Notes: generated from the letters alone by a model not told the origin. A stretch of 64,000 nucleotides of DNA from an uncultured Gammaproteobacteria bacterium (GCA_964519725.1 CAZFKS010000006.1:355-64354); one strand, 5' to 3'; positions 25,841-54,431 are shown, counted from the stretch's first letter. Numbers and translations: made by a program.

Positions 25841-25841
25841 T

Positions 25842-26822: not shown

Positions 26823-27862
26823 AGCTTTTGTTAATTACCCAAGCGGTTGATAAAACTGACCCAAATCTGGGCTTTTTTCACGCTTGGATTTTAAAATTGG
26901 CGGCTGAGGTGGAGCACTTGTACGTGATTTGTTTGCGCGCGGGCGAGTATGATTTGCCCAGTAATGTAACGGTTTTATCACTAGGTAAGGAGAAAAAGGA
27001 ATCGCGGGCGCAGTATTTACTTAGATTTTACCACTATATTTTTCAGTACCGAAAAAATTATCAGAGCGTCCTGGTGCATATGAACCCAGAGTATGTGGTT
27101 TTGGGTGGATTGTTTTGGCGGGTAATGCGGAAAAAGATTGGTCTGTGGTATGTGCACAAAAGTGTTGATCTTAAATTACGAATTGCGGAAAAAATGGTAA
27201 CAAAAATTTTTACTACTTCACCTGAAAGTTTCCGGTTGCGCACCAAAAAGATAAGTTATCTTGGGCATGGAATTAATATGGGGGAATTTAAAATCCAGGC
27301 ACCAGACATAAACTTGGTTTTTTTATCAGCCAGCAGAATTACTAGTAGTAAACATCTAGATACTATTGTTCAAGGTCTGGCTGAACTGAAAAAAAACGGT
27401 TTGAAAGCTAGATTAGAAATTGCCGGAGCACCAATTACTACCGCTGATAAAGTTTACTTGCAAGATTTGAAACAATTAGTCAGTGATCTGGGTCTTGATG
27501 CGGATGTAATATTTTTGGGTGGCTTAGATCGACTTGGATTAGTTGTGGCTCTGGCTCGCTCGCATTTACTCATTCACGCTAGTTCTACCGGAAGTACTGA
27601 CAAGATTGTGCTTGAGGCTCTGGCAAGTGGTCGACCAGTCATAACCTCAAGCGAGGCTTATCAAGAAGAAGCGAAAGCTGGATTCGTTGAGATCTTTAAA
27701 CCTGAAAACCCCACTGATTTGGCTGAGAAAATTATTCAGCTAAATAAAGCCGGAAAATTACAGACACCATTTTTACCTCGAACTGAATCGGTTGAATATA
27801 TCAGAAAACACCATAATTTAGACACTGTAATTAAACAAATAATCAATTATTTTACCGTATGA
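26819..27862 (+). CDS. GT4-like glycosyltransferase
   Basis: ATGA overlap. [25 protein letters not shown] is a C-terminal Rossmann motif. Confidence 0.6.
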
Positions 27863-28560
27863 AACTGTCAATTGTGATTCCCGTATACAATGAACTTCGG
27901 ACCATTAATAAAATTTTGGACGTCATTAATAGCGTTGAATTAAATGGAGTCGCTAAAGAAATTATCCTGGTTGATGATTGCTCTACTGACGGTACCAGAG
28001 AAATTTTGAAAAATTTGTCAGTCACCGACGGCTACCAAGTTTTTTTTCAAGAAAAAAATCAGGGCAAAGGCGCAGCTTTGCGCCGTGGTTTTAAGGAGGC
28101 AACTGGGGATTTTATTATTATTCAAGATGCGGATTTAGAATATGATCCGTATGAATATCCACAAATTTTAGCTCCGATGATTCAGGGTAAGGCCGATGTA
28201 GTTTATGGTTCACGCTTTATTGGGGATCGACCGCACCGAGTGTTATTTTTTTGGCACTCAGTGGGAAATAAAATATTGACCCTATTTTCCAACATGTTAA
28301 CTGACCTCAATTTAACTGACATGGAAACTTGCTACAAGGCCTTTACCAAAGAGGCAATGGCAAAAATATTACCAAAATTAGAATCCAACCGCTTTAATAT
28401 TGACCCAGAAATTACCGCGCGCATAGCCAAGGCGCGCCTCCGGATTTATGAAGTTGGAATTTCTTACCATGGTCGCACCTATGAAGAAGGTAAGAAAATT
28501 GGAATTAAGGATGGGTTTAGTGCTCTGTGGTCAATTATTAAATTCAATCTTTTTAGCTAA
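27859..28560 (+). CDS. GT2 polyprenyl-phosphate sugar synthase (DPM1/GtrB-like)
   Basis: [11 protein letters not shown]...[11 protein letters not shown]...[11 protein letters not shown]. Short and soluble, like Dpm1. Confidence 0.8.
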
Positions 28561-28563
28561 TGT

Positions 28564-29790
28564 ATGAGCGAAAAGCGGGTTTTAATAATTACCCCAAAAT
28601 TTCCTTATCCTAGTACTGGTGCTTGTGAATCAGACCGCGCCGCTGGCATAGAATGGTTTAAAAATCACGGTTATGAAGTCCATGTAATCACCAAAGTTTA
28701 CAATGAGGAAATTGCTGTGCAGTCTAAAAAAACCGGCCAAGAGCTTGGTGTTACTGTTTGGCCATTTGTTTATTTTGATAATACAAAAAGAACAGTATTG
28801 GCGCGAATATGGCATCGATTTAAACAATTTTTACAGCCTTGGTATTGGGATGGTGCGGCATATGAATATACTGATCCAGAGCTGAAAAATATTTTAGATA
28901 AAGAACTTAAGACATTTAAACCACAATTAGTTTGGTGTGAGTACACGTACTTGTGGCCACTCTTTAGTGTAATTAAAAAATATAATCTACCGATCATAAC
29001 CCGTTCGCATAATTTTGAACCGAATCACTATTTAGAAGAAGACGGATTAGGTTTGAAAACACCGTTAGTATATTTAGCTAAATTGCATAGTGAGTGGCGT
29101 ACCGCCCGTAAAAGTACGGTATTGGCTGCGATTACCCCATCTGAAACTAAAAAATATCAGTTCTTGGCTAGCGCAAAGACCAAAGTTTTTACCCTGCCTT
29201 TGCGTGGTTTAACTAAATTTACACAAATACAGCTTACAGAGAACCAGCCGTTGGCCGTATATTTCATGGGTTCGACTTATAATGTGACTCATAATTACGC
29301 AGCGGCTAGTTTTTTGGTCAATCAAGTAGTTCCGGCCGTCAGATCTAAATTACCAGGCGTGTTTTCTTTTTTTATTTTAGGTGGTAAGGTCCCTAAAGAT
29401 TTACTGGATAAGGCCTCATCTGACCTGTGTTTTCCTGGTTATATTCCTGCTTCTCAATTTGATAGTTTTTTGAAGACGATGAATATTTGCTTAGCGCCGT
29501 CACTGTATGGTGCTGGCATGCAACAAAAGGTTTTTGAGCCACTAATGCGCGGGTTTCCAACAATTACCTCAGCTCGGGCTCTGGTGGGTTATAAATTTCA
29601 AGATGGTCAGGAAGTACTTTTGGCCGAGTCTGTTCCAGAATTTGTCAATCGGTTAAGTGAATTACAAGACACACAAAAACGTGATCTGATCGGAAAACAG
29701 GCTGCAGTAAAGGCCGAGAGTTTGTTTAACCAAACTGAAATTGATAAAATAATTAATAACATTATTCAGTACGTAACCCTTAATAGGTAA
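28564..29790 (+). CDS. glycosyltransferase (GT4/GT1-like)
   Basis: RVLIITPKFPYPSTGACESDRAAG is an N-terminal GT-B motif. Confidence 0.6.
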   Translation: MSEKRVLIITPKFPYPSTGACESDRAAGIEWFKNHGYEVHVITKVYNEEIAVQSKKTGQELGVTVWPFVYFDNTKRTVLARIWHRFKQFLQPWYWDGAAYEYTDPELKNILDKELKTFKPQLVWCEYTYLWPLFSVIKKYNLPIITRSHNFEPNHYLEEDGLGLKTPLVYLAKLHSEWRTARKSTVLAAITPSETKKYQFLASAKTKVFTLPLRGLTKFTQIQLTENQPLAVYFMGSTYNVTHNYAAASFLVNQVVPAVRSKLPGVFSFFILGGKVPKDLLDKASSDLCFPGYIPASQFDSFLKTMNICLAPSLYGAGMQQKVFEPLMRGFPTITSARALVGYKFQDGQEVLLAESVPEFVNRLSELQDTQKRDLIGKQAAVKAESLFNQTEIDKIINNIIQYVTLNR

Positions 29791-29807
29791 ATTACACTTT
29801 TAATAAC

Positions 29808-31130
29808 ATGCGTACTGTACCGAAAATTTATTGGTTGGTTGGGCTCTCGGTTTTGGTGTCGCTATTGTATAGTTTTTGGTTCAAAATTACACCAGTCGTT
29901 GATGCGCAAGCGTATGATCAAATTGCAGTTAATTTGCTGGCGGGACATGGGTTTAGAGAAAATCCCACGCTAGATTTTAATTTTGATCACGCCATGTTAC
30001 GGGCTGGTCCAGGTTATGAATTCTTTCTCGCCTTTATTTACTGGATTTTTGGGCACACTTACGCTGTGGTTTGGTTTATTCAAGCTCTACTGCACGGAGC
30101 CACGGTTTGGTTGGTGTATAGAGCGGCTAAGCAAATATGGCCAGAGGAAACTAGCGAAGTCCAAGAGTGGATAGCACTCTCAGCCGCGGGAATGATTGCT
30201 TTTCACCCTGATTTGATTGAGATTTCAGCCATGCTCATGACTGAAACACTGTATGTGTTTATAGTCAGTGTTTTAGTCTATCTATTCGTTACTTTGCAAA
30301 GGAAAATCACTTGGTTAAAAGTTGGCTGGCTTGGTCTTTGGCTTGGACTTGGAATTTTAGTTAGACCAACTTTGCTTTTATTTGCCCCGGTAGTTTTGGT
30401 TTTGTTTTTGTTTCAGAAAAAATGGCTTGAAAGCGCAGTGTTTGTAGCAATGGTTGGCTTGGTTTTAGCACCGTGGGTAATCCGAAATTACTCGCTGTAT
30501 CATCAATTTATTTTAACCACGTTAATTGGTGATTTTAATATTTGGATTGGTAATACTCTCAGCGCGGATGGTGGGCAAATTGCTGGCGGTTTTAATCCCG
30601 TGACCACGTACGTAGATCAGAATGGTCTAACTGGCCTTGGCAATGAAGCCAAAAAAATGTTCAGGGAATTTATCTTTACTTATCCGCAAGAGTTTATAAA
30701 ATTAACAGCGATTCGGACGGTTCGATATTTTAGTTTAATTAGACCCATGGGTTTTTGGTTTTATGATCATGGTCTTTCACAAATAATCTTTGTGATTGCT
30801 TCCGGTCTAAGTATTGCTGGTTTATTTGTGAGCGGTTTAGCCGGTATAATCTTAGCTTGGTGGCGTCGTGAGCAAAAATGGTACCTGCTCGCCCTGACTG
30901 TAACCGCGCCAATTCCACTCCTGGTAACCGTGGTTCAATCAAGGTATCGGTTTCAGATTTATCCGTTTCTGGCACTATTTGGGGCATATGCAGTGGTGAA
31001 ATTATGGAAAAAAGCCTCAGTCGCAAAAATGGCTTGGGTTATGGCCGCAATTATTCTAGGGGTATTTACTTTAATTGATATAATGTTGTCATGGTCACTA
31101 GTGGCTGCCCGGTTAACTGATTTAATTTAA
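29808..31130 (+). CDS. GT-C membrane glycosyltransferase (ArnT/PMT_2, GT39/83-like)
   Basis: Polytopic. First-loop motif VVDAQAYDQIAVNLLAGHGF resembles the ArnT/PMT D-E/D loop. Confidence 0.5.
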   Translation: MRTVPKIYWLVGLSVLVSLLYSFWFKITPVVDAQAYDQIAVNLLAGHGFRENPTLDFNFDHAMLRAGPGYEFFLAFIYWIFGHTYAVVWFIQALLHGATVWLVYRAAKQIWPEETSEVQEWIALSAAGMIAFHPDLIEISAMLMTETLYVFIVSVLVYLFVTLQRKITWLKVGWLGLWLGLGILVRPTLLLFAPVVLVLFLFQKKWLESAVFVAMVGLVLAPWVIRNYSLYHQFILTTLIGDFNIWIGNTLSADGGQIAGGFNPVTTYVDQNGLTGLGNEAKKMFREFIFTYPQEFIKLTAIRTVRYFSLIRPMGFWFYDHGLSQIIFVIASGLSIAGLFVSGLAGIILAWWRREQKWYLLALTVTAPIPLLVTVVQSRYRFQIYPFLALFGAYAVVKLWKKASVAKMAWVMAAIILGVFTLIDIMLSWSLVAARLTDLI

Positions 31131-31132
31131 TT

Positions 31133-32581
31133 ATGACTGAAGCTTGGTTAGGGTGGTTTAAAAAACAGTGGTGTTTTGGTCTACTTTTTGCGGTGGTAAT
31201 TTTTTGTACGACTACTTGGCAGTTAGGAGCTAGTCCAGCCACTTGGTTTGATGAGGGAATTAATATTGGTATTGCTAATAGCCTCGTTGAACGCGGAATT
31301 TACAGCCTGGCTGTGAGTCCAGAAGAAGTGGTTAGCGCGACTGAACGTCCATTTCTCATCACTTCTAATTATCCAATCTTGGTGCCAGTAGCCGCCGCGT
31401 TAATATTATTTAACAGTGATAGTTTAATAGTGGTCAGGTTGCCAATGGTGCTGTATTTGTGGGCGTTTTTTGGTCTAGTTTTTTTATTAATAAAACGCTT
31501 CCACCCAAATTCTTGGGCCCCTTGGTTAGGAATTGGCCTGTTAGTTACTTTTGCCCCGCTGTATGGCAATGGAAAAGCCGTTCTGGGTGAAGTTCCAGGT
31601 TTGGTTTGGTTATTAGCTGGTCTCTTGGTATTACCCGCAAAAATTAATTGGCGTTTAGTGTTAGCAGGTTTTTGCTTTGGTTTGGCCATTGCCTGTAAAC
31701 CATATTTTTTAATTATTGCGCCAGCGGTTTTGGTGGGGGAATGGTATGCCTTTAGAACGGATAAGAAAATTTTTTTTACTCGCCTAGGATATTTGTTTAT
31801 TGGAGGAATTGGACCAATTATGGTCTGGCTCTTCACCATTTTAATTCCATTTTCTCTTGATTCAATCCAGAGAACAATTGGTTATTATAGTAATTCTTAC
31901 GCGGCTAGTAATTTTACGACGGTGGTTACTAGTAATGTGTGGCGCTTTTTTAGTGAAAGCACACCGATCCATTTGTTAGGACTGGTGTTGGTACTTGGTT
32001 TTTGGTTGAAAGATCGTTTTAAAAATAAAACTTTAACTGAGCTAGAAATAATTTTAGCAATGTTTGTTGGGATAACCATGCTCTGGTACTTGAAAACACC
32101 AGGTTGGTACCGATATTTTTTTACTGCTCACGTAGTGCTTTTGGCATTTTTACCAGTTAGTTTACTGTGGTTCAAGAAACAAAAAATTGCCATTGCCCTT
32201 ATGTTGGGCTTAATTAGTATCCAAGGGGTGCATCTTTTAACCAGAACTAATGACGCCCTCTATTACTCAACGGAAGCAACTGATTTTTCCAAAGAAGTAC
32301 TGAGCGCAGTGACAGCGGAAGAGAAAATATTAGTGATTAATAGTCCGAGTGTTGCTTTTTTACTCAGTGACCACGCTGAAACTTACCAATTTTTACAAAT
32401 CAATCCTAGTCTCCACTTTGGCCAGGCTGACCTTAAAATTAAGGCCTCAACCTGGTATCCTTATGTAATCACGAGCGGTTCACTGGAGGGGATCGATATT
32501 GAAAGTGCTGACGCTGTGTTAAAATCAGAGTACCAATCAATTAAACAGGTTGGCCATTATCAGCTTTGGAAAAAGCAATGA
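31133..32581 (+). CDS. GT-C membrane glycosyltransferase (ArnT/PMT_2-like)
   Basis: Polytopic. TWFDEGINIGIANSLVERGIY resembles the ArnT WxDE loop. Confidence 0.5.
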   Translation: MTEAWLGWFKKQWCFGLLFAVVIFCTTTWQLGASPATWFDEGINIGIANSLVERGIYSLAVSPEEVVSATERPFLITSNYPILVPVAAALILFNSDSLIVVRLPMVLYLWAFFGLVFLLIKRFHPNSWAPWLGIGLLVTFAPLYGNGKAVLGEVPGLVWLLAGLLVLPAKINWRLVLAGFCFGLAIACKPYFLIIAPAVLVGEWYAFRTDKKIFFTRLGYLFIGGIGPIMVWLFTILIPFSLDSIQRTIGYYSNSYAASNFTTVVTSNVWRFFSESTPIHLLGLVLVLGFWLKDRFKNKTLTELEIILAMFVGITMLWYLKTPGWYRYFFTAHVVLLAFLPVSLLWFKKQKIAIALMLGLISIQGVHLLTRTNDALYYSTEATDFSKEVLSAVTAEEKILVINSPSVAFLLSDHAETYQFLQINPSLHFGQADLKIKASTWYPYVITSGSLEGIDIESADAVLKSEYQSIKQVGHYQLWKKQ

Positions 32582-32582
32582 T

Positions 32583-33314
32583 ATGAATCAAACCATTTCA
32601 TACTCTCTAATAATTCCGATCTATAATGGCGCGACTTTTTTTGCATCAAAAATTAGTGATTTACGTGACTGGCTCGCAGCTGAACCGAATCGAGAAATAA
32701 TTATCGTTAATGATGGTAGCGTTGATGGAACTGAAGAAATCTTAGCCGGACTAAAAACAGAGACTGGTTTTACAATTATCAATCACTCTTTAAATCAAGG
32801 AAAAGGCGCGGCCTTGCGCTCAGGTTTGGTAGTAGCCCGTGGGCAGGTGGTGGGATTTACTGATGCTGATTTACCATATGGTCTAAATATTCTAACAACC
32901 ATGGGGCAAAAATTAGTTGCCAAACCAAATCTGGCCATGGTCTACGGCTCACGGGGCCATGAACAGTCAGGTGATCTGAAGAATTACGGTTGGCTGCGAA
33001 GAGTCGGACGTAAATTTTTTTCGATTCTCATCAAAAAAATCGCGGTGAGCAGTGTGACTGACTCTCAGTGTGGCGTTAAAGTGTTTACTGATTATTTTGT
33101 TAAAGACCTTGTGAAATATGGTCAGATCAACCGTTTTGCCTTTGACATTGAATTATTTGTGATTGCTAAAGCCAAGGGTTATTTTTACGAGGATTTTCCA
33201 GTTGTCCTGGGGGCGCAAAAAGAGAGTAGTGTGCGATTAGTGGTTGATACTCTGCGAATGTTAAAAGATTTAATAGTTATTAAAGCCAGACTAAGAAAAG
33301 GCGAATATACCTAG
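32583..33314 (+). CDS. GT2 glycosyltransferase (polyprenyl-phosphate sugar synthase-like)
   Basis: The ATG at 32583 gives YSLIIPIYNG...IIIVNDGSVDGT...FTDADLPYG. Confidence 0.75.
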   Translation: MNQTISYSLIIPIYNGATFFASKISDLRDWLAAEPNREIIIVNDGSVDGTEEILAGLKTETGFTIINHSLNQGKGAALRSGLVVARGQVVGFTDADLPYGLNILTTMGQKLVAKPNLAMVYGSRGHEQSGDLKNYGWLRRVGRKFFSILIKKIAVSSVTDSQCGVKVFTDYFVKDLVKYGQINRFAFDIELFVIAKAKGYFYEDFPVVLGAQKESSVRLVVDTLRMLKDLIVIKARLRKGEYT

Positions 33315-33315
33315 T

Positions 33316-35154
33316 ATGTGTGGAATTAATGGTTTTAATTTTTCTGACCAAAACCTAATTCAAAAAATGAATCAGGCTAGTAAGCACCGCGGTCCTGACG
33401 AGACTAATTTTTTGGTAGATGACGGTGTGTCATTGGGTCATAATCGGCTAGCGATTATTGATTTATCACCTAATGGTTGCCAGCCAATGTGGGATGCTGA
33501 TCATACAGTAGTAATTGTGTTTAATGGTGAAATTTATAATTACCAAGAATTAAAAAATGAACTGAAAGAGTATAAATTTAATTCCAAAAGTGATACGGAA
33601 GTGATTTTAAACGCTTATAAAAAGTTTGGAGTTGACTGTGTAAAAAAGTTTAATGGTATTTTTGCGTTTGCGATTTGGGATACCAAAACCAAAACATTAT
33701 TTTTAGCCCGTGATCAGGGTGGGGTTAAGCCGCTGTATTATTTTTATGACCAGGGGAAATTAATTTTTTCCTCAGAAATTAAAAGTATTTTAGAACACCC
33801 AATTAAAAGAGAAGTTAATACTGAGGCCTATAATTTATTTTTTCAGCTTTTGTACGTACCAGAACCACTAACGATGTTTGCGAATGTTCGTAAATTATTA
33901 GCTGGCCATTACGCAGTTGTGAAAAATGGGGAAATGAAAATAGTGAATTACTGGCCGCAAAAAAATAATCTAAGTAAACGTAATTATTCGGAAACCGTGG
34001 GTGAAATTAGGGATGTATTCCGTGACAGTGTTAAGCATCAATTAATCTCTGACCGTCCGGTTGGAATTTTCTTGAGTGGTGGTTTAGATTCCACGGCTGT
34101 CTTGGGTGCAGCAGCAGAGTTTCATCAGGGACCAATAAAAACGTTTACTGTGGGGTTTGCTGACAGCCAGGACCCAAAGAAATTTAATGCTGACCTTGAC
34201 TTAGCTAGAAAAACCGCGGCGTTTTATCACACTGATCACCATGAATTAATTTTAACACCGCGGGCGGTTTTGGATTCTCTAGAAGAGTTAGTGTGGCATT
34301 TAGATGAACCAAATTTTAATGCTACAGCTGGAGCAATTTTTGCCTTAGCCGCAAAAGCCAAAGAATCAGTAGCTGTGGTACTTGGTGGGGATGGGGCTGA
34401 TGAATTATTTGGTGGTTACCCTCGCTACTATTACAGCCGACTTATTAGTTTGTACCAAAAGACTGGTTGGCTGGGGCAAACCTTTGCCAAGACTGGTCAA
34501 GCACTGGGTTTTGGGTTAGCCCACAAACTAAATTTACCACCGACTGAAGCAAGGGTGCTAGCTTTTTTAGCCCAAAAACAGGAACTATTAAGTACTTTGC
34601 TGGGTCCGCAATATGAACCAGCGGCAGCCACTAATTTTTTGCACACTCAGTACTTTTTACAACCGCCGACCACTGAATTTGAAAATTATTTCATGCAGAT
34701 TGATCGTGAGGGTTGGTTAAGAGATGAGTCGCTTATGCGCACTGATAAAATGACTATGGCTCATGGTCTAGAAGCGCGGGTGCCGATTTTAGATCATCGT
34801 CTTGTTTCACTAAGTGAGCAAATTCCGGTTAATTGGAAATTTAGTATCTGGCAAAATCCGCATACTTTTCAAGGTAAAAATATTTGGAAAGAGGCAATCA
34901 AAGGCTATTTACCGGACCATGTTCTTAATCAAGAAAAACGTGGTTGGTTTACACCAATGGCTAAATGGGTGCGTAGTGATTTAAAAGAGTCAGTGGCGGA
35001 AATTTTGGCTGATGCCAAGCAAAATACGGCTTATTTTAGTGCGACTGGAATTGACCAAATTTGGAATGATCACTTAAGTGGGCGACAGTATAATTTAAAT
35101 AGTATCTGGGCTACAGTCATGTGGCAACTGTGGTATAATCGCTTCATTAAATAG
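33316..35154 (+). CDS. asnB: asparagine synthase (glutamine-hydrolysing) family amidotransferase
   Basis: N-terminal MCGI nucleophile and PP-loop SGGLDSTAV. Confidence 0.85.
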   Translation: MCGINGFNFSDQNLIQKMNQASKHRGPDETNFLVDDGVSLGHNRLAIIDLSPNGCQPMWDADHTVVIVFNGEIYNYQELKNELKEYKFNSKSDTEVILNAYKKFGVDCVKKFNGIFAFAIWDTKTKTLFLARDQGGVKPLYYFYDQGKLIFSSEIKSILEHPIKREVNTEAYNLFFQLLYVPEPLTMFANVRKLLAGHYAVVKNGEMKIVNYWPQKNNLSKRNYSETVGEIRDVFRDSVKHQLISDRPVGIFLSGGLDSTAVLGAAAEFHQGPIKTFTVGFADSQDPKKFNADLDLARKTAAFYHTDHHELILTPRAVLDSLEELVWHLDEPNFNATAGAIFALAAKAKESVAVVLGGDGADELFGGYPRYYYSRLISLYQKTGWLGQTFAKTGQALGFGLAHKLNLPPTEARVLAFLAQKQELLSTLLGPQYEPAAATNFLHTQYFLQPPTTEFENYFMQIDREGWLRDESLMRTDKMTMAHGLEARVPILDHRLVSLSEQIPVNWKFSIWQNPHTFQGKNIWKEAIKGYLPDHVLNQEKRGWFTPMAKWVRSDLKESVAEILADAKQNTAYFSATGIDQIWNDHLSGRQYNLNSIWATVMWQLWYNRFIK

Positions 35155-35158
35155 TCAT

Positions 35159-35800: not shown

Positions 35801-35810
35801 GAGCGCAGGT

Positions 35811-37295: not shown

Positions 37296-37296
37296 T

Positions 37297-38019
37297 ATGC
37301 GTCTTTCTGTAGTAATTCCAGCGTATAATGAAGAACAGGCAATTGGCGCGGCCATTACTGCGGTCTTTGATTTTTTGACTAATAATAATTTTGGCGAACC
37401 AGAAGTAATTGTGGTTGATGATGGGTCAAGCGATCAAACTGGAGCAGTAGTAGCGGACTATCAAAAAAAATACTCGGCTCTTAAATATGTGAAAAATACT
37501 CCCAATCGGGGCAAGGGTTTTTCGGTAAAACAGGGTGTGCTCGCTGCGACCGGGGATTACATTCTATTTTTAGACGCTGATTTATCTACCCCAATTACTG
37601 AATTAAAAAAAGTTTGGCCTTTTGCTCAGGAAAAAACAATTGTAGTTGGGTCGCGAGCCTTGCCAGAATCAGTGATTGTTAAACATCAGGCTAAACTTAA
37701 AGAGTTGGTGGCCCGTTTGGGAAATTTACTGATTCAACTGTGTTTGGGGTTGCGGATTAGTGACACTCAGTGTGGTTTTAAATTGTTTCCGGCTAGTATT
37801 AAGTCAGTTTTTACCGTGGCAACGATTGAACGCTGGGGCTTTGATATGGAGATTTTATTTTTAGCCAAACATCAGGGGTTTACCATTAAAGAAGTGCCCA
37901 TTACCTGGACTAATGATCCGAGTAGTTTGGTTCGAGGTAAGGATTATTTGGTGGTACTCGCGGATATTGGGCGCATATTGACACGGTGGTTTTTGGGCCG
38001 ATATACTGCTGGACGCTAA
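37297..38019 (+). CDS. GT2 polyprenyl-phosphate sugar synthase (Dpm1/dolichyl-P-glucose-synthase-like)
   Basis: RLSVVIPAYNEE...VIVVDDGSSDQT...LFLDADLSTP. Confidence 0.8.
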   Translation: MRLSVVIPAYNEEQAIGAAITAVFDFLTNNNFGEPEVIVVDDGSSDQTGAVVADYQKKYSALKYVKNTPNRGKGFSVKQGVLAATGDYILFLDADLSTPITELKKVWPFAQEKTIVVGSRALPESVIVKHQAKLKELVARLGNLLIQLCLGLRISDTQCGFKLFPASIKSVFTVATIERWGFDMEILFLAKHQGFTIKEVPITWTNDPSSLVRGKDYLVVLADIGRILTRWFLGRYTAGR

Positions 38020-38021
38020 CT

Positions 38022-38747
38022 ATGGAGAAAATTTCCTACTACATTATTAATGAAGTTGAGGCCAAACACTGGTGGTTTAGGGTCAGACGCGAGCTCCTAC
38101 AGGCCGTATTTAATGAATATTTGCCGGCCGGGTCACAGCGCCGAATTTTAGATATTGGGTGTGGTACTGGTTTAAGTTCTAAATTACTTGAGCAATTTGG
38201 GACAGTTTTTTCAGTTGATCCGTCCTTGGATGCGCTGCGATTTTGCCGTGAAAATGGGCTTAAAAATGTATTTGAAGGAGTGGCTGACAAACTCCCTTTT
38301 CCTGATAATTATTTTGACGCGGCCATTGCTCTTGATGTACTAGAACATATTGAAGACGCTGGCAAAGCCGTGGCGGAAATTAGACGCGTTTTAAAACCAG
38401 GCGGAATTTTTGTTAGTTATGTGCCGGCATTTATGTTTTTATGGGGACATAATGATGTGGTTAGAATGCACCACCGCCGTTATACGAAAAAAACTTTTTT
38501 ACCATTATTTAAAAAAGATTGGTGGGTACAGAAAAAATTGTCCTACTTTAATTTAATTTTATTAGGACCAATTTGGCTAGGGCGAAAACTAAGAGAACTA
38601 ATTTACACGGTTCCGCCTGATGAACTAGAACAGGTGGGTTGGGCTGATCGATTTTTGTACTGGATTTTTAAGTCTGAATTGTGGTTTTTAAAGCGCTGGA
38701 ATTTACCGTTTGGAGTTTCCTTATTAAGTGTCATGGCTAAAAAATAA
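38022..38747 (+). CDS. class I SAM-dependent methyltransferase
   Basis: ILDIGCGTGLSSKLL...LDVLEHIED...VLKPGGIF. Confidence 0.75.
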   Translation: MEKISYYIINEVEAKHWWFRVRRELLQAVFNEYLPAGSQRRILDIGCGTGLSSKLLEQFGTVFSVDPSLDALRFCRENGLKNVFEGVADKLPFPDNYFDAAIALDVLEHIEDAGKAVAEIRRVLKPGGIFVSYVPAFMFLWGHNDVVRMHHRRYTKKTFLPLFKKDWWVQKKLSYFNLILLGPIWLGRKLRELIYTVPPDELEQVGWADRFLYWIFKSELWFLKRWNLPFGVSLLSVMAKK

Positions 38748-38748
38748 T

Positions 38749-39426
38749 ATGAGCCACGCTGCTTTTTGTGCCGAGTATGTTCCGGTCCGCGGTCAGGTGC
38801 TTGATGTTGGTGCTGGCCGGGGAAATTGGGTGGTAGAAATGGCTAAAGCCGGATTCACTGTGTCTGGAATTGAGATTAACCCTGATTATGTGCGTGAAGC
38901 CGAAACTAAGGCAAAATTAGCTGGGGTGACTGTTAATTTAGTGACCGGGCCAGCGGAAAAATTACCCTATGCTAATAATTTTTTTGATTTTGCCAATTGC
39001 GCTGAAGTCACTGAGCACGTGAATGACCCAATTCAAATTGGTCAGGAAATTTGTCGGGTCTTGAAAAATAAGGCTTACGCCTACATCAGTTTTCATAACC
39101 GGTATGGTGTTTATGACTACCACTACCACTTGTGGGGGATTAATTGGCTGCCACGTGCTGTGACTGAGCCAATTTTGCGATTACTTGGTAAACAAAAGTC
39201 AGACGGTGAAAATGGGCGGCAAAAATTAACTACCATGCACTACTATCGTTTTGGCGAAGTGCAAAGTTTACTACAACGAATTGGCTTGGTTGCGATTGAT
39301 TTGCGGGTGGTAAAAATTAAAAAACGATTTGGTAAACTAGCGCCCCTAGTTTTACTCGGTTATTACACAATTTTGCGACCCTTGTATTTTAATACTTTTC
39401 ATATCTTAGTCCAGAAAAAGATATGA
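38749..39426 (+). CDS. class I SAM-dependent methyltransferase
   Basis: VLDVGAGRGNWVVEMAKAGFTVSGIE...VTEHVNDP. Confidence 0.7.
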   Translation: MSHAAFCAEYVPVRGQVLDVGAGRGNWVVEMAKAGFTVSGIEINPDYVREAETKAKLAGVTVNLVTGPAEKLPYANNFFDFANCAEVTEHVNDPIQIGQEICRVLKNKAYAYISFHNRYGVYDYHYHLWGINWLPRAVTEPILRLLGKQKSDGENGRQKLTTMHYYRFGEVQSLLQRIGLVAIDLRVVKIKKRFGKLAPLVLLGYYTILRPLYFNTFHILVQKKI

Positions 39427-40898
39427 TTTTTAATTCCCTGCAATTCTTTCTTTTTTTTCCGGTGGTAACCGGTTTATATTTTTTATTACCTCACCGGGCT
39501 CGATGGGTATTACTACTGGCGGCCAGCTGTGTTTTTTACATGGCCTTTGTACCAAAGTATATTTTGATTTTATTTACTACCATTGTTATTGACTATTTTG
39601 CCGGAATTTTTATTGAAAAAGCGGAAGGTAAAAAACGAAAGTGGTACCTGATTGCTAGTCTGGTTTCGAATGTAGGATTCTTGGCTTTTTTTAAGTACTA
39701 TGGTTTTACGGTTGAAAATCTGAATGCCTTGGCAAATTTTATTGGTTGGAATTACTCTCTGCCGTTGCTCAATATTATTTTGCCAGTCGGTTTGTCGTTC
39801 CATACTTTTCAGGCCATGAGTTATACCATAGAAGTTTACCGTGGTCAGCAAAAAGCAGAGCGGCACTTTGGAATTTATGCTCTGTATGTCATGTTTTATC
39901 CTCAACTCGTGGCTGGTCCAATTGAACGGCCGCAAAATTTATTACATCAATTCTGGGAAAAACATTATGTTAATTTTGATCGAATTAGTTCAGGGCTAAG
40001 GTTAATGCTCTGGGGATTTTTCAAAAAAATTGTCATTGCTGATAATGCGGCGGCTATTGTTAACCGCATTTTTGATTATCCAAATCAATTTTATGGTCCA
40101 GCTTTGGTGGTAGCCATAGTTTTGTTTGCCTTTCAAATTTACTGCGATTTTTCTGGGTATTCTGACGTGGCGATTGGTGCGGCCAGAGTCATGGGCTTTA
40201 GGTTAATGGATAATTTTAACCTGCCGTATAGTTCTCAGTCAGTGGCTGAATTTTGGCGTCGGTGGCATATTTCTTTATCAACTTGGTTTAAAGATTATAT
40301 CTATATTCCACTTGGTGGCAGCCGAGTCACAGCCGGGCGGTTTGCGTTCAATATAATGATAGTTTTTTTGATTAGTGGCCTGTGGCACGGCGCTGCCTGG
40401 ACTTACATTGTTTGGGGTGGACTGCTAGGTGTATATGTCATTGGGTCACGGATAAGTAAACCGTACCGTGAACAATTAGTTAATTGGTTAAAGCTTAGTC
40501 ACTGGCCAAATTTCTACCGTTTAATCAGAATTTTATTTACTTTTTCGATCATTTGTTTGGCCTGGGTATTTTTCCGCGCCAAAACTGTGGCTGATGCTTG
40601 GTACTTGATCACCAATATTTTTAATGGTTGGAATAGATATTTAGTAGGTCCACAGTGGTATGATTGTTTTGAAAATTTAGCCACCACTCTAGGGGTAAGT
40701 ACCTTTAGTTTGGCCCACCTAATCGTAGCTATATTTTTTATGCAGTGGGTTGAAATTAAATTAAAAAGTAAGGGCACACAAACTGGTTTTTCAGCTTATG
40801 CCCCGTGGGTTAGATACAGCTTTTATAATGTACTGATTTTGTGGATTTTATTTTTTGGTTATTTTGGTGAGCGTCCCTTTATTTATTTCCAGTTCTAG
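39423..40898 (+). CDS. MBOAT-family membrane O-acyltransferase (AlgI/DltB-like)
   Basis: FWRRWHISLSTWFKDYIYIPLGGSR is the MBOAT signature with the catalytic His. Confidence 0.85.
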   Translation: MIFNSLQFFLFFPVVTGLYFLLPHRARWVLLLAASCVFYMAFVPKYILILFTTIVIDYFAGIFIEKAEGKKRKWYLIASLVSNVGFLAFFKYYGFTVENLNALANFIGWNYSLPLLNIILPVGLSFHTFQAMSYTIEVYRGQQKAERHFGIYALYVMFYPQLVAGPIERPQNLLHQFWEKHYVNFDRISSGLRLMLWGFFKKIVIADNAAAIVNRIFDYPNQFYGPALVVAIVLFAFQIYCDFSGYSDVAIGAARVMGFRLMDNFNLPYSSQSVAEFWRRWHISLSTWFKDYIYIPLGGSRVTAGRFAFNIMIVFLISGLWHGAAWTYIVWGGLLGVYVIGSRISKPYREQLVNWLKLSHWPNFYRLIRILFTFSIICLAWVFFRAKTVADAWYLITNIFNGWNRYLVGPQWYDCFENLATTLGVSTFSLAHLIVAIFFMQWVEIKLKSKGTQTGFSAYAPWVRYSFYNVLILWILFFGYFGERPFIYFQF

Positions 40899-40901
40899 AA
40901 T

Positions 40902-42131
40902 ATGAACCAAAAAGCTAACTGGAGTTATAAAATTTGCCAAGTAGGATTAACCACCATGGTTTTAATTGGTTTAATCTTTAGTATTGAATATTTACTAAGA
41001 GTGTCGGCAAATGTTAGAAAAATTGATGATATTCCTTACGTAACTGTTAATGGACTCAGAGTTTTTATTCCTAATCAAGATCGAATTGTAACTGGTGGTG
41101 CCTTTGTTCCCATCCACGTGAAAACCAATTCTGAGGGTTATGCTAGCCCAGAATATGCTGTTCCAAAACCAGCCAATACTAAACGCGTGGTTATTTTGGG
41201 TAACTCATTTACCAGAGGTTTTGAGGTGGATTATGATCAGAAATTTTCTAGCTTAACGGAAAAATACTTGCGTGATTTAAATCCAAACATAAAGTATGAA
41301 GTAATGAATTTTGGGATTGGGGGTTATAGTTTAATTGACCAAATGTTTGTGTATGAGCGCTATGTTAAAAAATACAAACCTGATGTGGTGATTTTGGTAA
41401 CTTATTTACCAATGGATTTTGCTACTACTAAAATTTTTTTACCAGATCAAACCTACTTGCAAAAAACACCAGTTCAGGAATTATCAGGTGAGCGTTTACT
41501 GGCCCAAGAACCGACTTATACCAGTCAGGGCCGGTCAGAGTGGGAAATAACTAAATTTTGTCGGCGAATTCTGGCTGGTGTGACGGAAAAAATTCATCAC
41601 CTAACTTTGACTAGCAGTGGTCAGTTAGGCACCGCAGTTAGTTGGTTGTATGAGCACTGGCTGAGTTTGGGTTTAATTGATGCTCCGGCTGTCCAGGCTG
41701 TGACTGTGAGTGATGGTGAGGAAAATTATTTTAACCCTAATGATCAGGGTCGGGCTGAAATTAGACAATTTACTGCCGAAATGGTTGTAAAACTGGGACA
41801 AGCAGTTAAACAAGATGGGGTAGAGTTTAGAACGGTGGTTATTCCTAGTCACTGGGAGGTTGATGGTAAGTATGCTAAACAGTTTACCGATTCTTTTCCG
41901 AGAGGCTATAACCCAGCCTTACCTACTCAGGGCTTAAAACAAGTGGTAGACGGGGCTTTTCCAGTCCTTGATTTAGCTGAGTCAATTGCACCAGCAATTA
42001 ACCAGGATAAAGTGCAGGTGTTTATCCGGGACACTGGACATTTCACGGCTGCTGGGCATGATTTAGTGGCTAAAACTATCGTGGATTTTCTAAAAAATAG
42101 TCCAATTCTTCAGTTGCCAACTACCCCCTGA
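40902..42131 (+). CDS. membrane-anchored SGNH-hydrolase-like partner of the MBOAT (AlgJ/AlgX/DltD-like)
   Basis: N-terminal TM helix. VVILGNSFTRGFEVDYDQ is a GDS(L)-like block. It follows the MBOAT gene directly. Confidence 0.5.
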   Translation: MNQKANWSYKICQVGLTTMVLIGLIFSIEYLLRVSANVRKIDDIPYVTVNGLRVFIPNQDRIVTGGAFVPIHVKTNSEGYASPEYAVPKPANTKRVVILGNSFTRGFEVDYDQKFSSLTEKYLRDLNPNIKYEVMNFGIGGYSLIDQMFVYERYVKKYKPDVVILVTYLPMDFATTKIFLPDQTYLQKTPVQELSGERLLAQEPTYTSQGRSEWEITKFCRRILAGVTEKIHHLTLTSSGQLGTAVSWLYEHWLSLGLIDAPAVQAVTVSDGEENYFNPNDQGRAEIRQFTAEMVVKLGQAVKQDGVEFRTVVIPSHWEVDGKYAKQFTDSFPRGYNPALPTQGLKQVVDGAFPVLDLAESIAPAINQDKVQVFIRDTGHFTAAGHDLVAKTIVDFLKNSPILQLPTTP

Positions 42132-42176
42132 TTTGCTATATTCCCTGCAGCAATTTATTAGATTTTTCCTATTCTT

Positions 42177-42914
42177 ATGACCGAAAATCAGCCCAAACCA
42201 GCCTTGTCAGTGGTTATACTGTGCTACCGTGCCGAGGACTTTGCGCCAGTGTTTGTGGGTCAGATGGAAGAAGCTCTAAAAAAAGCTAATCTTGATTATG
42301 AATTAGTGCTCGTGGCTAATTACCAAAAAAATGCCGCGAAACCAGACCGGACACCCCAAATTGTGCGTGATCTAGCCAAGACTAACCCGCGGCTGCTAGT
42401 AGTGGCCAAGGAAAAAGAGGGGATGATGGGTTGGGATATGCGCTCTGGTCTTGAAGCGGCAACGGGTGATGTGATTGGTGTGATTGATGGCGACGGACAA
42501 ATGCCCCCAGCGGATATAATTAAAATTTATGATGTTTTGAAACAGGGGAATTATGATCTGGCCAAAACCTACCGTGTGCAGCGGTTTGATGGTCTATTTC
42601 GGGTGGTTATTTCTAAATTCTACAATGCTTTTTTCAAAATTTTATTTCCCAAAGCCAAAGTTCGGGATGTAAATTCCAAACCAAAAATGTTCACCAGGGC
42701 TGCCCTAGAAAAATTAAAATTAACCTCCAGTGATTGGTTTATTGATGCGGAAATTATGATTCAGGCTGGTGAGTTAGGGTTTAAAATTGGCCAGGCCCCA
42801 ACTGATTTTTACCCAAATGAAAATCGAAAATCATTTGTAAAGTTTAGTGCGATTTTTGAATTCATGGCGAACCTAGTCAAGTACCGAATTAAAATCTGGA
42901 AGCACAAGGTATGA
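42177..42914 (+). CDS. GT2 glycosyltransferase
   Basis: LSVVILCYRAEDF..., a DxD-like VIDGDGQ, and a small soluble Dpm1-like architecture. Confidence 0.7.
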   Translation: MTENQPKPALSVVILCYRAEDFAPVFVGQMEEALKKANLDYELVLVANYQKNAAKPDRTPQIVRDLAKTNPRLLVVAKEKEGMMGWDMRSGLEAATGDVIGVIDGDGQMPPADIIKIYDVLKQGNYDLAKTYRVQRFDGLFRVVISKFYNAFFKILFPKAKVRDVNSKPKMFTRAALEKLKLTSSDWFIDAEIMIQAGELGFKIGQAPTDFYPNENRKSFVKFSAIFEFMANLVKYRIKIWKHKV

Positions 42915-44692
42915 GTAGGTTTACTAGTCTTGTCCAAAAAATACAAGCTCATTGGCTTATCTTAGTGTCAGCACTGGTGTTGACACTAATTATTTTTTAC
43001 CCAGTTTTTGCTCTACCGCAGTATTTAAAGGGTGAGTACCAGGGAATTAATTTTGTTCATTTTGGCAGTGACAGTCATTTTTATTTGACCAGAGCCAAAG
43101 AAGCTCTGGAAGGTAAACCAATGGGGAATCCTTTTTTGCGTGAAGGTAAAACTGAACTTGATCTTTTCTTCATGCATAATGAGCAAATTTTAACCGCACC
43201 CTGGCGTTGGCTTGGACTCAGTGACTCGGTAAACATTGTTCATATTTATAATGCCTACAACTTTATTGGAATTTTTGCTGTTCTAATTCTCATTTATAGC
43301 TTGGCTTTTTTCTTATCAAAAAATAAATTGCAGAGTGCGATCACGGCCATTTCTGTAGTTGGTGGGTATCACTTAGTATATGATAAGGCGTTTTTTTACA
43401 ATGATTTTAATATCTATGGCCGGCCAATGTTTCCGTACATCAGTTCGCTGGTCTTTTTCACCTACTTAAATGTTTTGGTACGCGCACTTAAATATTTAAA
43501 CCAAAAATACTTCTTTGCCCTTAGTTTAGTTTTTGGCGCTATTTTCTACGTTTATTTTTTTGCCTGGACTTTTGCGGTTGCCGTTCATGGTTCTTTATTT
43601 TTACTCTACGCTGCCCAGCGGGACTGGAAGCGGGTTAAGTTTTTGCTAGGCACTGGGGTAATGGGTGTGATCCTGGGTAGTTACCAGTTAATCACCATGG
43701 CTAAGTTCTTCACCTCGCCCTTTGGGGCACAATCTGAATATTTTCACTGGTCAGCTAAAGGCCGAGGTTTAATTTTTAGTAAAATTGGTTTTTTAAGTTT
43801 AATTGTCTTGGTAATTTTACGGTATAAGAAAAAAGAGGATCAGAATTTTATTTTTTTGCTTGGCTTAATTGCGGCTGTGTGGGTGGCGCTCAATCAGCAA
43901 ATTATTACGGGTAAGCTACTTCAAATTGGTCATTATTACTGGTATTTTATTGTGCCGTGTGCCATTATCACAGCCTGGTACGTGGTCTGGCAATTTGTTC
44001 AGAATAAAAAATGGCAGATTGCCATTACCGCGTTTACTTTGGTTGTTGTTGGCGCCCACAGTCTGATTGGGCAACACCAATCTTTTTTAACTACCCTTGA
44101 TCAGCTTCGCTACGAACAGACCTACAAACCAATGCTCGATATTTTAAATCAAGACCAAAACCCAGGAGTAGTTTTAGCGGCAGATGATTACTTGTCTGGT
44201 CTGGTTACTGTTTACACTAACCATGATTTATTTTGGGATCGTTCAGCACTCATGACCTACACTAGCACTGAACGGTTCCGTGATGTGCTCTATTTATTTA
44301 CTTACGTGAATAACGACGCGCGGTTTAATTTTGCCGACTACTATGGTCGGGTAATGGCTGATGGTGCGGCGGAATCATTCTATAAACAACAATATAAAGC
44401 ACTTGAGGGTTTGGCGAGTGGGGTTGATTATTATTCGTACAATGGAAAATTAGCCAAACAGGCCCCTGAATTAATTAGTCAAAGACAAAAGCAATTACCA
44501 GAACTTGCGAGCGAGTACAAAGCCAGGGCCAGTACGCCAGCGCTTAGTCGTGATTTGTTTAAGCAGTACCACATTAATTACATAATTTGGGATAAAAAGA
44601 ATCACCCAGAGTGGGATCTATCTTTTTTGACCAATAAAAAAGAATTGTATTCAACCGAAGCCGTTGTGCTTTACCAAGTAACTCAAATATAA
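42911..44692 (+). CDS. polytopic membrane protein with a C-terminal soluble domain, function unknown
   Basis: ~10 TM segments in the first ~380 aa, then a ~210-aa hydrophilic tail. ATGA overlap. No motif recognised. Confidence 0.5.
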   Translation: MSRFTSLVQKIQAHWLILVSALVLTLIIFYPVFALPQYLKGEYQGINFVHFGSDSHFYLTRAKEALEGKPMGNPFLREGKTELDLFFMHNEQILTAPWRWLGLSDSVNIVHIYNAYNFIGIFAVLILIYSLAFFLSKNKLQSAITAISVVGGYHLVYDKAFFYNDFNIYGRPMFPYISSLVFFTYLNVLVRALKYLNQKYFFALSLVFGAIFYVYFFAWTFAVAVHGSLFLLYAAQRDWKRVKFLLGTGVMGVILGSYQLITMAKFFTSPFGAQSEYFHWSAKGRGLIFSKIGFLSLIVLVILRYKKKEDQNFIFLLGLIAAVWVALNQQIITGKLLQIGHYYWYFIVPCAIITAWYVVWQFVQNKKWQIAITAFTLVVVGAHSLIGQHQSFLTTLDQLRYEQTYKPMLDILNQDQNPGVVLAADDYLSGLVTVYTNHDLFWDRSALMTYTSTERFRDVLYLFTYVNNDARFNFADYYGRVMADGAAESFYKQQYKALEGLASGVDYYSYNGKLAKQAPELISQRQKQLPELASEYKARASTPALSRDLFKQYHINYIIWDKKNHPEWDLSFLTNKKELYSTEAVVLYQVTQI

Positions 44693-54430: not shown

Positions 54431-54431
54431 T

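Follow-up and report, generated by a model that had tools for sequence, protein, structure and literature searches.

A 64,000-nucleotide stretch of DNA assigned to an uncultured Gammaproteobacteria bacterium (GCA_964519725.1 CAZFKS010000006.1:355-64354), hereafter the window, carries between positions 27859 and 44692 a close succession of genes for small glycosyltransferases of family 2 (GT2), polytopic membrane proteins, a membrane O-acyltransferase with its partner, and methyltransferases. The question raised by this locus is what such a set of enzymes makes, from which sugar donors, and on which side of the membrane. The first-pass annotation, made from the sequence alone, had proposed that single sugars are transferred outside the cell from lipid carriers to a protein or glycan acceptor, which is then decorated. 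Our follow-up analysis indicated that the region probably encodes four polyprenyl-phosphate-sugar-dependent glycosylations outside the cell, together with O-acylation and with methylation and amidation in the cytoplasm, and that it forms the side-chain or tailoring module of a surface-glycan operon in a bacterium of the candidate phyla radiation (CPR). In the following, genes and their products are named by the start coordinate of the gene.

Results

Assignment of the four GT2 enzymes

The GT2 domain PF00535 was matched above its gathering score by 27859 (1.5e-33), 32583 (6.1e-20), 37297 (2.3e-30), and 42177 (2.1e-15), which we designated GT2a to GT2d, and each protein contained a DxD motif: DAD in 27859, 32583, and 37297, and DGD in 42177. 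When GT2a, GT2c, and GT2d were used to search solved structures, the top relative was the dolichol-phosphate mannose synthase (DPMS) of Pyrococcus furiosus (5mlz; E-values of 3.7e-19, 2.4e-13, and 1.2e-10, respectively), followed by ArnC and GtrB (sll0501). The alignment with 5mlz spanned residues 1-126 of GT2a, 1-228 of GT2c, and 10-242 of GT2d, and identity to the solved relatives was low, with bit scores of 45-73. GT2b was assessed by NCBIfam and matched PpgS (2e-15) over most of its length. The best NCBIfam match of GT2a was AglJ (3.9e-34, residues 3-228), followed by PgfS, ArnC, and PpgS. The NCBIfam matches that spanned most of a GT2 protein were to polyprenyl-phosphate enzymes (AglJ, PgfS, ArnC, PpgS, and a haloarchaeal dolichyl-phosphate hexose transferase), whereas PgaC, EpsD, and similar models matched only the first ~100 residues. 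These similarities suggested that the four GT2s are most likely polyprenyl-phosphate-sugar synthases of the Dpm1/ArnC/GtrB class, and the description of all four as Dpm1-like in the first-pass annotation was borne out.

Because the mutual identity of the four enzymes was only 22-34% (34% between GT2b and GT2a), they are old paralogues and not recent copies. A hydropathy scan detected no membrane helix in any of them; the proteins consist of 233-254 aa and end after the catalytic domain. Human-type DPM1 also has no membrane helices.

Polytopic proteins of the GT-C type

Three polytopic proteins, 29808, 31133, and 35811, had initially been listed as transferases of the GT-C fold. The assignment stood, but the count became four, since the 593-aa protein 42911, encoded directly 3' of the fourth GT2 gene, had been overlooked. 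Each of the four contained 9-12 hydrophobic helices in the hydropathy scan (~10 in 29808). BLAST detected no pairwise similarity among them; therefore, they are not recent duplicates.

By its domain match, 29808 was assigned to PMT_2 (PF13231, 8.7e-11; 42.7 bits against a gathering score of 26.1), and it had two aspartate residues, D32 and D38, in the loop following the first membrane helix. Neither 31133 nor 35811 itself had a Pfam match. Among the matches listed for 31133, 102 of 120 homologues contained PF13231, and several sources annotate them as "glycosyltransferase family 39 protein". PMT_2 was likewise matched by 21 of the 51 members of the 35811 family, and distant homologues of 35811 bear the source-database label methylthioxylose transferase. 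From these family relationships, 31133 and 35811 were classified as divergent PMT_2 relatives. The loop motifs that had been pointed out in the two proteins proved to be real: W38, D40, E41, and G42 (WFDEG) of 31133, located just after the first membrane helix, were invariant in an alignment of 60 sequences, and H192 and H196-P197-P198-G199 (HPPG) of 35811 were invariant in 51 sequences. The conserved loop of 35811 (E162, H192, and HPPG) lies further along the chain than the loop after the first helix.

AlphaFold models were made for two of the four polytopic proteins, 35811 and 42911. A Foldseek search with the 35811 model (predicted local distance difference test score, pLDDT, 94.8) retrieved AftA (8.4e-5), STT3, ArnT, and ALG12; all nine matches at E ≤ 0.001 were GT-C enzymes, and unrelated transporters appeared only at E > 0.1 with TM-scores near 0.1. 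The 42911 model (pLDDT 93.7; predicted TM-score, pTM, 0.92) had 11 long membrane helices, followed at the C-terminus by an α/β domain of ~180 residues. Its best matches were DPY19 (6.8e-8), yeast and human STT3, PglB, AglB, and AftA, and ALG9/12, ArnT, Emb, and PimE followed lower in the list; all 23 matches at E ≤ 0.001 were GT-C enzymes, with TM-scores up to 0.54. For the matches to oligosaccharyltransferases (OSTs) and DPY19, the E-values were 6.8e-8 to 6e-5, the TM-scores 0.44-0.54, and the sequence identity ~10-12%. Thus, the idea that the polytopic proteins are transporters, which had been named as the finding that would overturn the GT-C assignment, failed for 35811 and 42911. Of the Emb/AftA families that had been suggested for comparison, AftA was among the fold matches of both modeled proteins and Emb among those of 42911.

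The 42911 family

No Pfam or NCBIfam match was obtained for 42911, and none of 58 members of its family matched any GT-C family in Pfam, PMT_2 and STT3 included. The WWDYG/WWD motif was not present in the 42911 sequence. A comparison of profiles by hhalign gave a remote link to the PMT_2-like family of 31133 (86% probability, E = 4.6e-6), in which D54 of 42911, kept in at least 90% of its family, was placed on D40 of the invariant D40-E41 pair. An exhaustive profile search collected 2,466 cluster representatives, 683 of them at E ≤ 1e-30, and the 65 loci that were fetched for the family were nearly all from CPR bacteria. The model and these searches identified 42911 as a predicted GT-C-fold member of a large family that no searched library (Pfam, NCBIfam) describes.

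Eight alignment columns were invariant in the family (R61, K80, R171, P175, W219, P349, Q388, and Q403). All eight, and a near-invariant NQQ...GHYYW block, were located on outside loops or outward helix ends of the model, and lysine plus arginine made up 15 of 63 residues in the short predicted inside loops versus 7 of 81 in the short outside loops. This pattern fits an outward-facing active site. Since a nucleotide-sugar-using GT2 is fused ahead of the first membrane helix in some relatives (see below), the N-terminus would be inside and the loop containing D54, or WFDEG in 31133, would be outside.

Seven related loci contained two or three 42911-family paralogues each, with three in tandem in one of them, suggesting that the family is diversifying in acceptor or donor specificity. 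A homologue with 24% identity was found in a contig labeled as a Nanoarchaeia archaeon (DPANN; DATGWK010000071.1). In a Giovannonibacteria locus (from CP066687.1; positions 1861-4752 of the fetched locus), a 42911 homologue lies beside genes for a UbiA-family transferase, a small HAD/PGP-type phosphatase, and an SDR epimerase, and a 197-aa GtrA_DPMS_TM protein is also encoded there. This gene set resembles the pathway from polyprenyl-phosphoribose to a pentofuranose donor (PMC11127046), so that, by analogy, members of the 42911 family may use differing lipid-linked donors.

Linkage of GT2 and GT-C genes

With four GT2s and four polytopic GT-Cs, the two enzyme types occur in the region at a ratio of 1:1 and in adjacent genes; the likely pairs are 27859 with 29808, 32583 with 31133, 37297 with 35811, and 42177 with 42911. 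In several relatives, the two functions were found in one polypeptide. Two fusion proteins of 846 and 840 aa (P0169 and P0194) had an N-terminal GT2 with 63 and 45% identity to 42177, respectively, followed by a full-length 42911 homologue. In P0163 and P0189, a 37297-like GT2 was joined to the 42911 family, and in P0073 and P0077 a GT2 was joined to the 31133 family; a further fusion, P0098, joined a GtrA domain to the 31133 family. Among the best 150 of the 2,466 representatives of the 42911 family, nine were at least 770 aa long, and seven of these nine began with a 37297- or 42177-like GT2.

Synteny was counted in 62 species-representative loci with a clear 42911 homologue (of the 65 fetched). 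A Dpm1-like GT2 gene was located within 5 kb of the homologue in 44 of the 62 and within 200 bp in 12. From adjacency, the 1:1 count, and the fusions, we infer that GT2 and GT-C enzymes are functionally coupled. An orthologue of the methyltransferase 38728 was often encoded directly upstream of 42911 homologues, and a gene for an AsnB-type amidotransferase adjoined GT2/GT-C genes in 11 related loci; the order AsnB, GT2, GT-C was seen in four loci. This conserved neighborhood suggests that the methyltransferases and AsnB modify the sugars delivered by the GT2/GT-C pairs.

Acyltransferase, methyltransferase, and amidotransferase genes

The MBOAT protein 39423 had the RRWHISLS motif and the conserved histidine, in WHG, at residue 322. 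Its closest solved relative was DltB (6bug, 4.2e-26), and the closest curated family was also DltB (TIGR04091, 142 bits against a cut-off of 375). Its partner 40902 had an N-terminal membrane helix, GNS at position 100, and DTGH at position 377; matches to Lipase_GDSL_2 and ALGX were weak and below the cut-off, and the SGNH assignment rests on the motifs. All open reading frames (ORFs) of at least 200 aa in the window, plus a few shorter ones, were scanned for domains, and neither an AMP-binding (DltA) nor a carrier-protein (DltC) domain was detected among them, a DltC-sized ORF (~80 aa) being outside that scan. This pair more likely performs O-acetylation, or a different AlgI/AlgJ-type O-acylation, and an acetyl group is favored because the SGNH partner is present and DltA/DltC-type domains were not detected among the scanned ORFs. 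The MBOAT/SGNH pair of the first-pass annotation was confirmed, and the O-acetylation that it had implied is plausible for the pair.

Of the three to four methyltransferases that had been counted, three class-I enzymes (35159, 37986, and 38728) are within the range, and the fourth, an FkbM-type enzyme (48579), is outside it. The match of 35159 to Methyltransf_11 was the weakest (2.1e-6; 28.7 bits against a cut-off of 21.2). The AsnB-type protein 33316 matched Asn_synthase (2.1e-84) and TIGR01536 (458 bits against a cut-off of 267); together with the GT-B enzyme 28564 and the polytopic 42911, it had been omitted from the earlier list. Because they need S-adenosylmethionine (SAM), or ATP and glutamine, the methyltransferases and AsnB must work on the cytoplasmic side, with intermediates that are linked to a nucleotide or a lipid and have not yet been exported. 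Decoration after transfer, as originally envisaged, hence does not apply to methylation and amidation, which precede export, whereas the lipid-sugar GT2/GT-C core of that proposal was retained.

Gene organization and host lineage

A six-frame ORF listing showed every ORF named in the first-pass annotation at its given position, and an unbroken run of 22 co-directional genes on the + strand at 20948-45772, and the interval 27859-44692 makes up its distal two thirds, the tailoring half (Table 1). Neighboring genes overlap or are 1-17 bp apart, except for a maximum gap of 45 bp just 5' of 42177. This layout fits a single operon, as had been proposed; a consensus scan of 26.5-46.4 kb for promoters and terminators gave counts not above chance (55 promoter-like and 30 terminator-like sites, where 47.9±7.3 and 21±4.5, respectively, were expected) and added nothing to that proposal. 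Rfam and tRNA scans of the window found nothing besides a tRNA-Cys at 8370-8444. The run lies within a ~46-kb surface-glycan locus, and its five upstream GT4 enzymes are presumed to build the core glycan.

Table 1. Predicted genes of the co-directional run and the basis of their assignment
Feature	Position	Strand	Assignment and basis
Epimerase/dehydratase and five GT4 enzymes	20948..27862	+	Upstream part of the run; domain search
GT2a	27859..28560	+	Dpm1/AglJ/ArnC-class GT2, 233 aa
GT-B (GT4-like) glycosyltransferase	28564..29790	+	Soluble, 408 aa; Glyco_trans_1_4 5.4e-10; TIGR03087 2e-11, below cut-off
GT-C a	29808..31130	+	PMT_2 (GT39/GT83-like) polytopic transferase, 440 aa
GT-C b	31133..32581	+	Divergent PMT_2-type polytopic transferase, 482 aa
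GT2b	32583..33314 (ORF opens at TTG 32550)	+	Dpm1/PpgS-class GT2
AsnB-type glutamine-dependent amidotransferase	33316..35154	+	612 aa; Asn_synthase, GATase_7, TIGR01536
Class-I SAM methyltransferase 1	35159..35800	+	213 aa; weak Methyltransf_11 match
GT-C c	35811..37295 (start also listed as 35781)	+	Divergent PMT_2-related GT-C, 494 aa
GT2c	37297..38019	+	Dpm1-class GT2
Class-I SAM methyltransferase 2	37986..38747	+	Methyltransf_11 1.8e-24
Class-I SAM methyltransferase 3	38728..39426	+	Methyltransf_11 1.8e-19
MBOAT, DltB/AlgI-type membrane O-acyltransferase	39423..40898	+	491 aa; PF03062 1.9e-26
Membrane-anchored SGNH/AlgX-like partner	40902..42131	+	409 aa; motifs, and Lipase_GDSL_2 and ALGX below cut-off
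GT2d	42177..42914	+	Dpm1-class GT2; likely cognate of GT-C d
GT-C d	42911..44692	+	GT-C-fold protein (model), 593 aa, without Pfam or NCBIfam match
GDP-mannose 4,6-dehydratase	44702..45772	+	Last gene of the run; TIGR01472 492 bits against cut-off 415; PF16363 1.5e-138

Judging from its homologues, the host is a Patescibacteria (CPR) bacterium. The named homologues of the three polytopic proteins that were searched came nearly all from metagenome-assembled genomes (MAGs) of Patescibacteria/CPR, including Magasanikbacteria, Giovannonibacteria, Kaiserbacteria, Falkowbacteria, Peregrinibacteria, and Taylorbacteria. One carrier was a complete Giovannonibacteria genome of 651,549 bp, and this distribution gives indirect support to the earlier remark that the genome is small. 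The relative with the highest identity was a Magasanikbacteria MAG (87% for the GDP-mannose 4,6-dehydratase and 81% for GT2d), and a syntenic MAG (L004/L008) kept near-complete window order (29.8-53 kb), apart from one block that is inverted. Among the carriers of the 42911 family, several TPA_asm MAGs are labeled "uncultured Gammaproteobacteria" or "Saccharibacteria", although they look CPR-like in gene content; these labels may be placeholders or results of mis-binning.

Neighboring modules of the glycan locus

The window encodes at least 14 glycosyltransferases. On the 5' side of the tailoring region are genes for a tetratricopeptide-repeat (TPR) protein, a 668-aa Wzy_C protein, six GT4 enzymes, and an epimerase/dehydratase, and on the 3' side of the run are those for a DegT aminotransferase, one more GT4 enzyme, the FkbM methyltransferase (48579), and a Capsule_synth protein. 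In the Wzy_C (O-antigen ligase/polymerase-like) protein (17773-19779), which is preceded by the TPR protein, ~12 membrane helices are followed by a tail of helical repeats at the C-terminus. The protein could act as a polymerase, as a ligase, or as a PglL-like protein O-oligosaccharyltransferase. Its homologues were found downstream of 42911-family genes in eight related loci.

At 44702-47267, the gene for GDP-mannose 4,6-dehydratase is convergent with those for the DegT aminotransferase and a 130-aa cupin-like protein, a set that might produce a GDP-amino-6-deoxyhexose (perosamine or mycosamine, for example). The 130-aa ORF at 46875 (- strand) had been considered as a flippase fragment because of a weak Polysacc_synt_C match and was rejected: it had no membrane helix, and its orthologue weakly matched Cupin_2. 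A module for 3'-phosphoadenosine 5'-phosphosulfate (PAPS) and sulfation occupies 50916-56702 and comprises a fusion of a pyruvate-kinase barrel, PUA_2, and ATP sulfurylase, a membrane protein of the Na+/H+-exchanger family, adenosine 5'-phosphosulfate (APS) kinase, a CysQ-like phosphatase, and a sulfotransferase. The fusion protein, 751 aa in length, is unusual and is kept in the syntenic locus L004. This module suggests a sulfated surface glycan in a CPR bacterium. A nonulosonic-acid pathway (legionaminic/pseudaminic/sialic type) fills 56704-64000, with genes for HisF- and HisH-like proteins, a CMP-sugar cytidylyltransferase, two GFO/IDH oxidoreductases, NeuB, a 395-aa protein without a Pfam match, and a NeuC-like UDP-GlcNAc 2-epimerase that runs past the window end.

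Just 5' of the glycan locus, two large proteins with an N-terminal hydrophobic segment are encoded at 13197-16970 and 8610-10466 (- strand), one of 1257 aa without a Pfam match and the other of 618 aa with DUF11 and CARDB domains; genes for an extracytoplasmic-function (ECF)-type sigma factor and a two-component system are nearby. Both proteins are candidate surface proteins or glycan acceptors. A GC-rich island at 6023-8116 (- strand; 57.8% G+C, the window as a whole having ~40%) encodes a 697-aa protein rich in Cys, Asp, and Thr, in which the Dicty_CTDC repeat (PF00526, 6.7e-39) occurs at least seven times and each end has DxDxDG motifs like those that bind calcium. The protein is a candidate surface protein or adhesin. 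Tandem repeats were not detected in the DNA of this island.

Discussion

Proposed pathway and alternative explanations

In the pathway that we propose, each helix-free, peripheral GT2 would move a sugar from its nucleotide form to polyprenyl phosphate on the cytoplasmic face of the membrane, and the lipid-phosphate-sugar would be flipped by a flippase encoded outside the window. On the outer face, the polytopic GT-C would pass the sugar to an acceptor built by the GT4 enzymes of the locus. The MBOAT would pass an acetyl group, or less probably another acyl group, through the membrane, and the anchored SGNH partner would attach it to the glycan on the outer side. The three methyltransferases and the AsnB-type amidotransferase would modify nucleotide- or lipid-linked sugars in the cytoplasm before export.

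Several results weigh against this pathway. None of the four GT2s reached an NCBIfam equivalog cut-off, and their donor and lipid specificity is thus unproven. By sequence, no solved structure was matched by the profiles of the 31133, 35811, and 42911 families or by the single sequence of 29808; kinship with solved GT-C structures was visible by fold comparison only, and the TM-scores of the modeled polytopic proteins were moderate (~0.4-0.54). The positive-inside rule did not settle the sidedness of 35811. The best fold matches of 42911 include OSTs, which use pyrophosphate-linked oligosaccharide donors and protein acceptors, and for this reason the transfer of single sugars onto a glycan is not established. 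A GtrA-, Wzx-, or MATE-like flippase was not detected in the window by ORF domains, two hydropathy scans, or tblastn with two GtrA queries, nor did the hydropathy scans reveal any small polytopic ORF there, including a GacJ-like membrane activator for the helix-free GT2s. An initiating phosphoglycosyltransferase (WecA/MraY- or WbaP-like) was likewise missing among the window ORFs scanned, as was an ABC exporter. A GtrA gene was found by tblastn in ~11 related loci, and there is a precedent in CflA for a flippase that is encoded elsewhere and shared (PMC9574508).

Because no initiating phosphoglycosyltransferase was found among the window ORFs scanned, one or more of the GT2s may instead prime a lipid-monophosphate oligosaccharide. 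In that pathway, a GT2 such as 27859 would prime polyprenyl monophosphate, the GT4s would extend the chain, the methyltransferases and AsnB would modify it, and after flipping a GT-C would transfer the whole block, as WpsJ does in Lactococcus and AglB in Haloferax. Such a route has a parallel in WpsA/B, homologues of GacI/GacJ, which prime a lipid-monophosphate oligosaccharide that the GT-C WpsJ transfers (PMC9574508). It would agree with AglJ as the best NCBIfam match of GT2a, with the position of this gene immediately behind five GT4 genes and ahead of a GT4-like one, with the missing phosphoglycosyltransferase, Wzx, and ABC exporter, with the need of the cytoplasmic methyltransferases and AsnB for a lipid- or nucleotide-linked substrate on their side of the membrane, and with the OST and DPY19 group as the nearest folds to 42911. 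We nevertheless consider it unlikely, since four GT2/GT-C pairs suit four single-sugar branches better than four block transfers, the fusion of first- and last-step enzymes is less natural than that of a donor synthase and its transferase, and the priming enzyme may lie beyond the 64-kb window. The nature of the acceptor was weighed separately. Some of the GT-Cs, especially 42911 and the PMT_2 members, might use polyprenyl-phosphate-sugars to glycosylate proteins of the cell surface, for example pilins, S-layer proteins, or the large secreted ones whose genes lie upstream. DPY19, STT3, PglB, and AglB, the top fold matches of 42911, are protein glycosyltransferases, although fold similarity inside the GT-C superfamily is uninformative on the acceptor and 42911 lacks both the WWDYG motif and any STT3 or PMT Pfam match. 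PMT_2 is named for protein O-mannosyltransferases, and PgfS, reportedly a GT2 named in a streptococcal protein-glycosylation study, was among the best NCBIfam matches of GT2a, GT2c, and GT2d. Large secreted and repeat proteins are encoded at 6023-16970, and a Wzy_C-domain protein at 17773; PglL-type O-oligosaccharyltransferases carry this domain. However, the genes lie amid ~10 GT4/GT-B enzymes and nucleotide-sugar pathways, as is usual in polysaccharide loci, and a protein acceptor appears doubtful, if worth keeping in view.

It is very improbable, and was already disfavored, that the GT2s are ordinary cytoplasmic extenders of a repeat unit and that the polytopic proteins are polymerases, ligases, or transporters unlinked to lipid-phosphate-sugars. 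The GT2 family is indeed very broad, with the equivalog cut-offs missed by all four enzymes here, and three of the four polytopic proteins have no Pfam match of their own; but DPMS, ArnC, and GtrB were the top solved relatives of the three GT2s tested, the significant fold matches of both modeled proteins were all GT-C with transporters only at insignificant scores, GT2/GT-C fusions were recurrent, and the conserved residues face outward. A bolder extension concerns the 42911 family, which would be an undescribed, nearly CPR-only GT-C family of OST/DPY19-like build. Each member and its adjacent or fused Dpm1-like GT2 would be a self-contained unit of donor synthase and transferase that glycosylates surface proteins (for example pilins or S-layer proteins) from polyprenyl-monophosphate donors. 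In bacteria, this would correspond to the logic of AglD/AglS/AglB in archaea or of DPM1/DPY19 in eukaryotes, and no dedicated GtrA flippase might be needed; we regard this as quite unlikely. We retain four polyprenyl-phosphate-sugar-dependent glycosylations outside the cell, plus O-acylation, as the probable function of the region, with the product of the GT4 enzymes as the proposed acceptor.

Significance of the locus

Our search found no literature on the biochemistry of CPR surface glycans and nothing specific on CPR GT-C enzymes or GT2/GT-C fusions. CPR/Patescibacteria are ultra-small, and all cultivated members are reported to live attached to the surfaces of other microbes (PMC11623550); therefore, the surface chemistry of these bacteria is probably important in shaping their contact with the host. 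Together with its conserved copies elsewhere in the CPR, the locus suggests a heavy investment in surface tailoring, the predicted tally being four lipid-dependent outside glycosylations, O-acylation, methylation, amidation, sulfation, and a nonulosonic acid. If the genome is similar in size to that of the 651-kb relative, the ~46-kb locus would occupy several percent of its length. Most deserving of further study is the 42911 family with its GT2 fusions. A large GT-C family (~2,470 cluster representatives), unrecognized by Pfam and NCBIfam, has now been brought out, and the fusions supply both a functional hypothesis for it and a single-polypeptide target for biochemistry or cryo-electron microscopy. 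A further question that the fusions pose is by what route a lipid-linked donor would reach the outer face without a nearby flippase gene.

Comparison with known systems

In the GtrA/GtrB/Gtr* systems of Shigella and Salmonella and in CsdAB/CsdCD/CsdEF with CflA of Lactococcus lactis, as in the present locus, a GT2 synthase gene adjoins the gene for a divergent GT-C, and several pairs occur per organism (PMC9574508, PMC11127046). The present locus differs in having four pairs in one CPR operon, GT2s without the C-terminal membrane helices of GtrB and CsdA-type enzymes, no GtrA gene in the window, and one GT-C without a Pfam or NCBIfam match; in addition, relatives of the present proteins often carry GT2 and GT-C as one polypeptide. 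A similar division of labor is seen in GacI/GacJ/GacK/GacL of Streptococcus pyogenes and in WpsA/B-WpsJ of Lactococcus, where the GT-A enzyme GacI makes a C55-P-sugar with the help of the separate small membrane partner GacJ, which it needs, and a GT-C finishes the reaction outside (PMC9574508); the present window differs from them in that neither a GacJ-like activator nor a Wzx-type flippase was found.

At the level of single enzymes, the GT2s of the window have the catalytic domain and DxD motif in common with DPMS (5mlz), ArnC (9bhc, 8vxh, and 9hwj), and GtrB (5eke), but not the C-terminal membrane helices of GtrB, ArnC, and archaeal DPMS. Among the GT-Cs, 29808 is a predicted member of ArnT/PMT_2 (PF13231, GT83/GT39-like), which includes mycobacterial MtxT-like enzymes, and the 31133 and 35811 families are its likely kin: acidic and HPPG-type loop motifs are present, and ArnT was among the fold matches. 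In contrast to ArnT/PMT_2 enzymes, 31133 and 35811 are below Pfam detection, and the host is a monoderm-type CPR bacterium without a lipid A context. The predicted build of 42911, many membrane helices followed by an outside C-terminal domain, is that of OST (STT3/PglB/AglB, GT66) and DPY19 (GT98). It differs from OST in the missing STT3 Pfam match and WWDYG motif, and its coupling or fusion to a lipid-monophosphate-sugar synthase would be expected for a DPY19-like rather than an OST-like donor.

The acyltransferase pair corresponds to AlgI/AlgJ/AlgX, PatA/PatB, and DltB/DltD, in which a bacterial MBOAT with a conserved histidine likewise acts with an anchored SGNH-like partner. The Dlt system differs from it, as the MBOAT scored far below the DltB equivalog cut-off and no DltA/DltC domain occurred among the scanned ORFs, and AlgX/SGNH systems differ in that the present partner matches the SGNH and AlgX models weakly. 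The locus as a whole thus follows a known kind of logic, that of three-component-like lipid-sugar glycosylation, and what it adds to the known systems is four pairs per operon, helix-free GT2s, and a library-unmatched GT-C family often found fused to the synthase.

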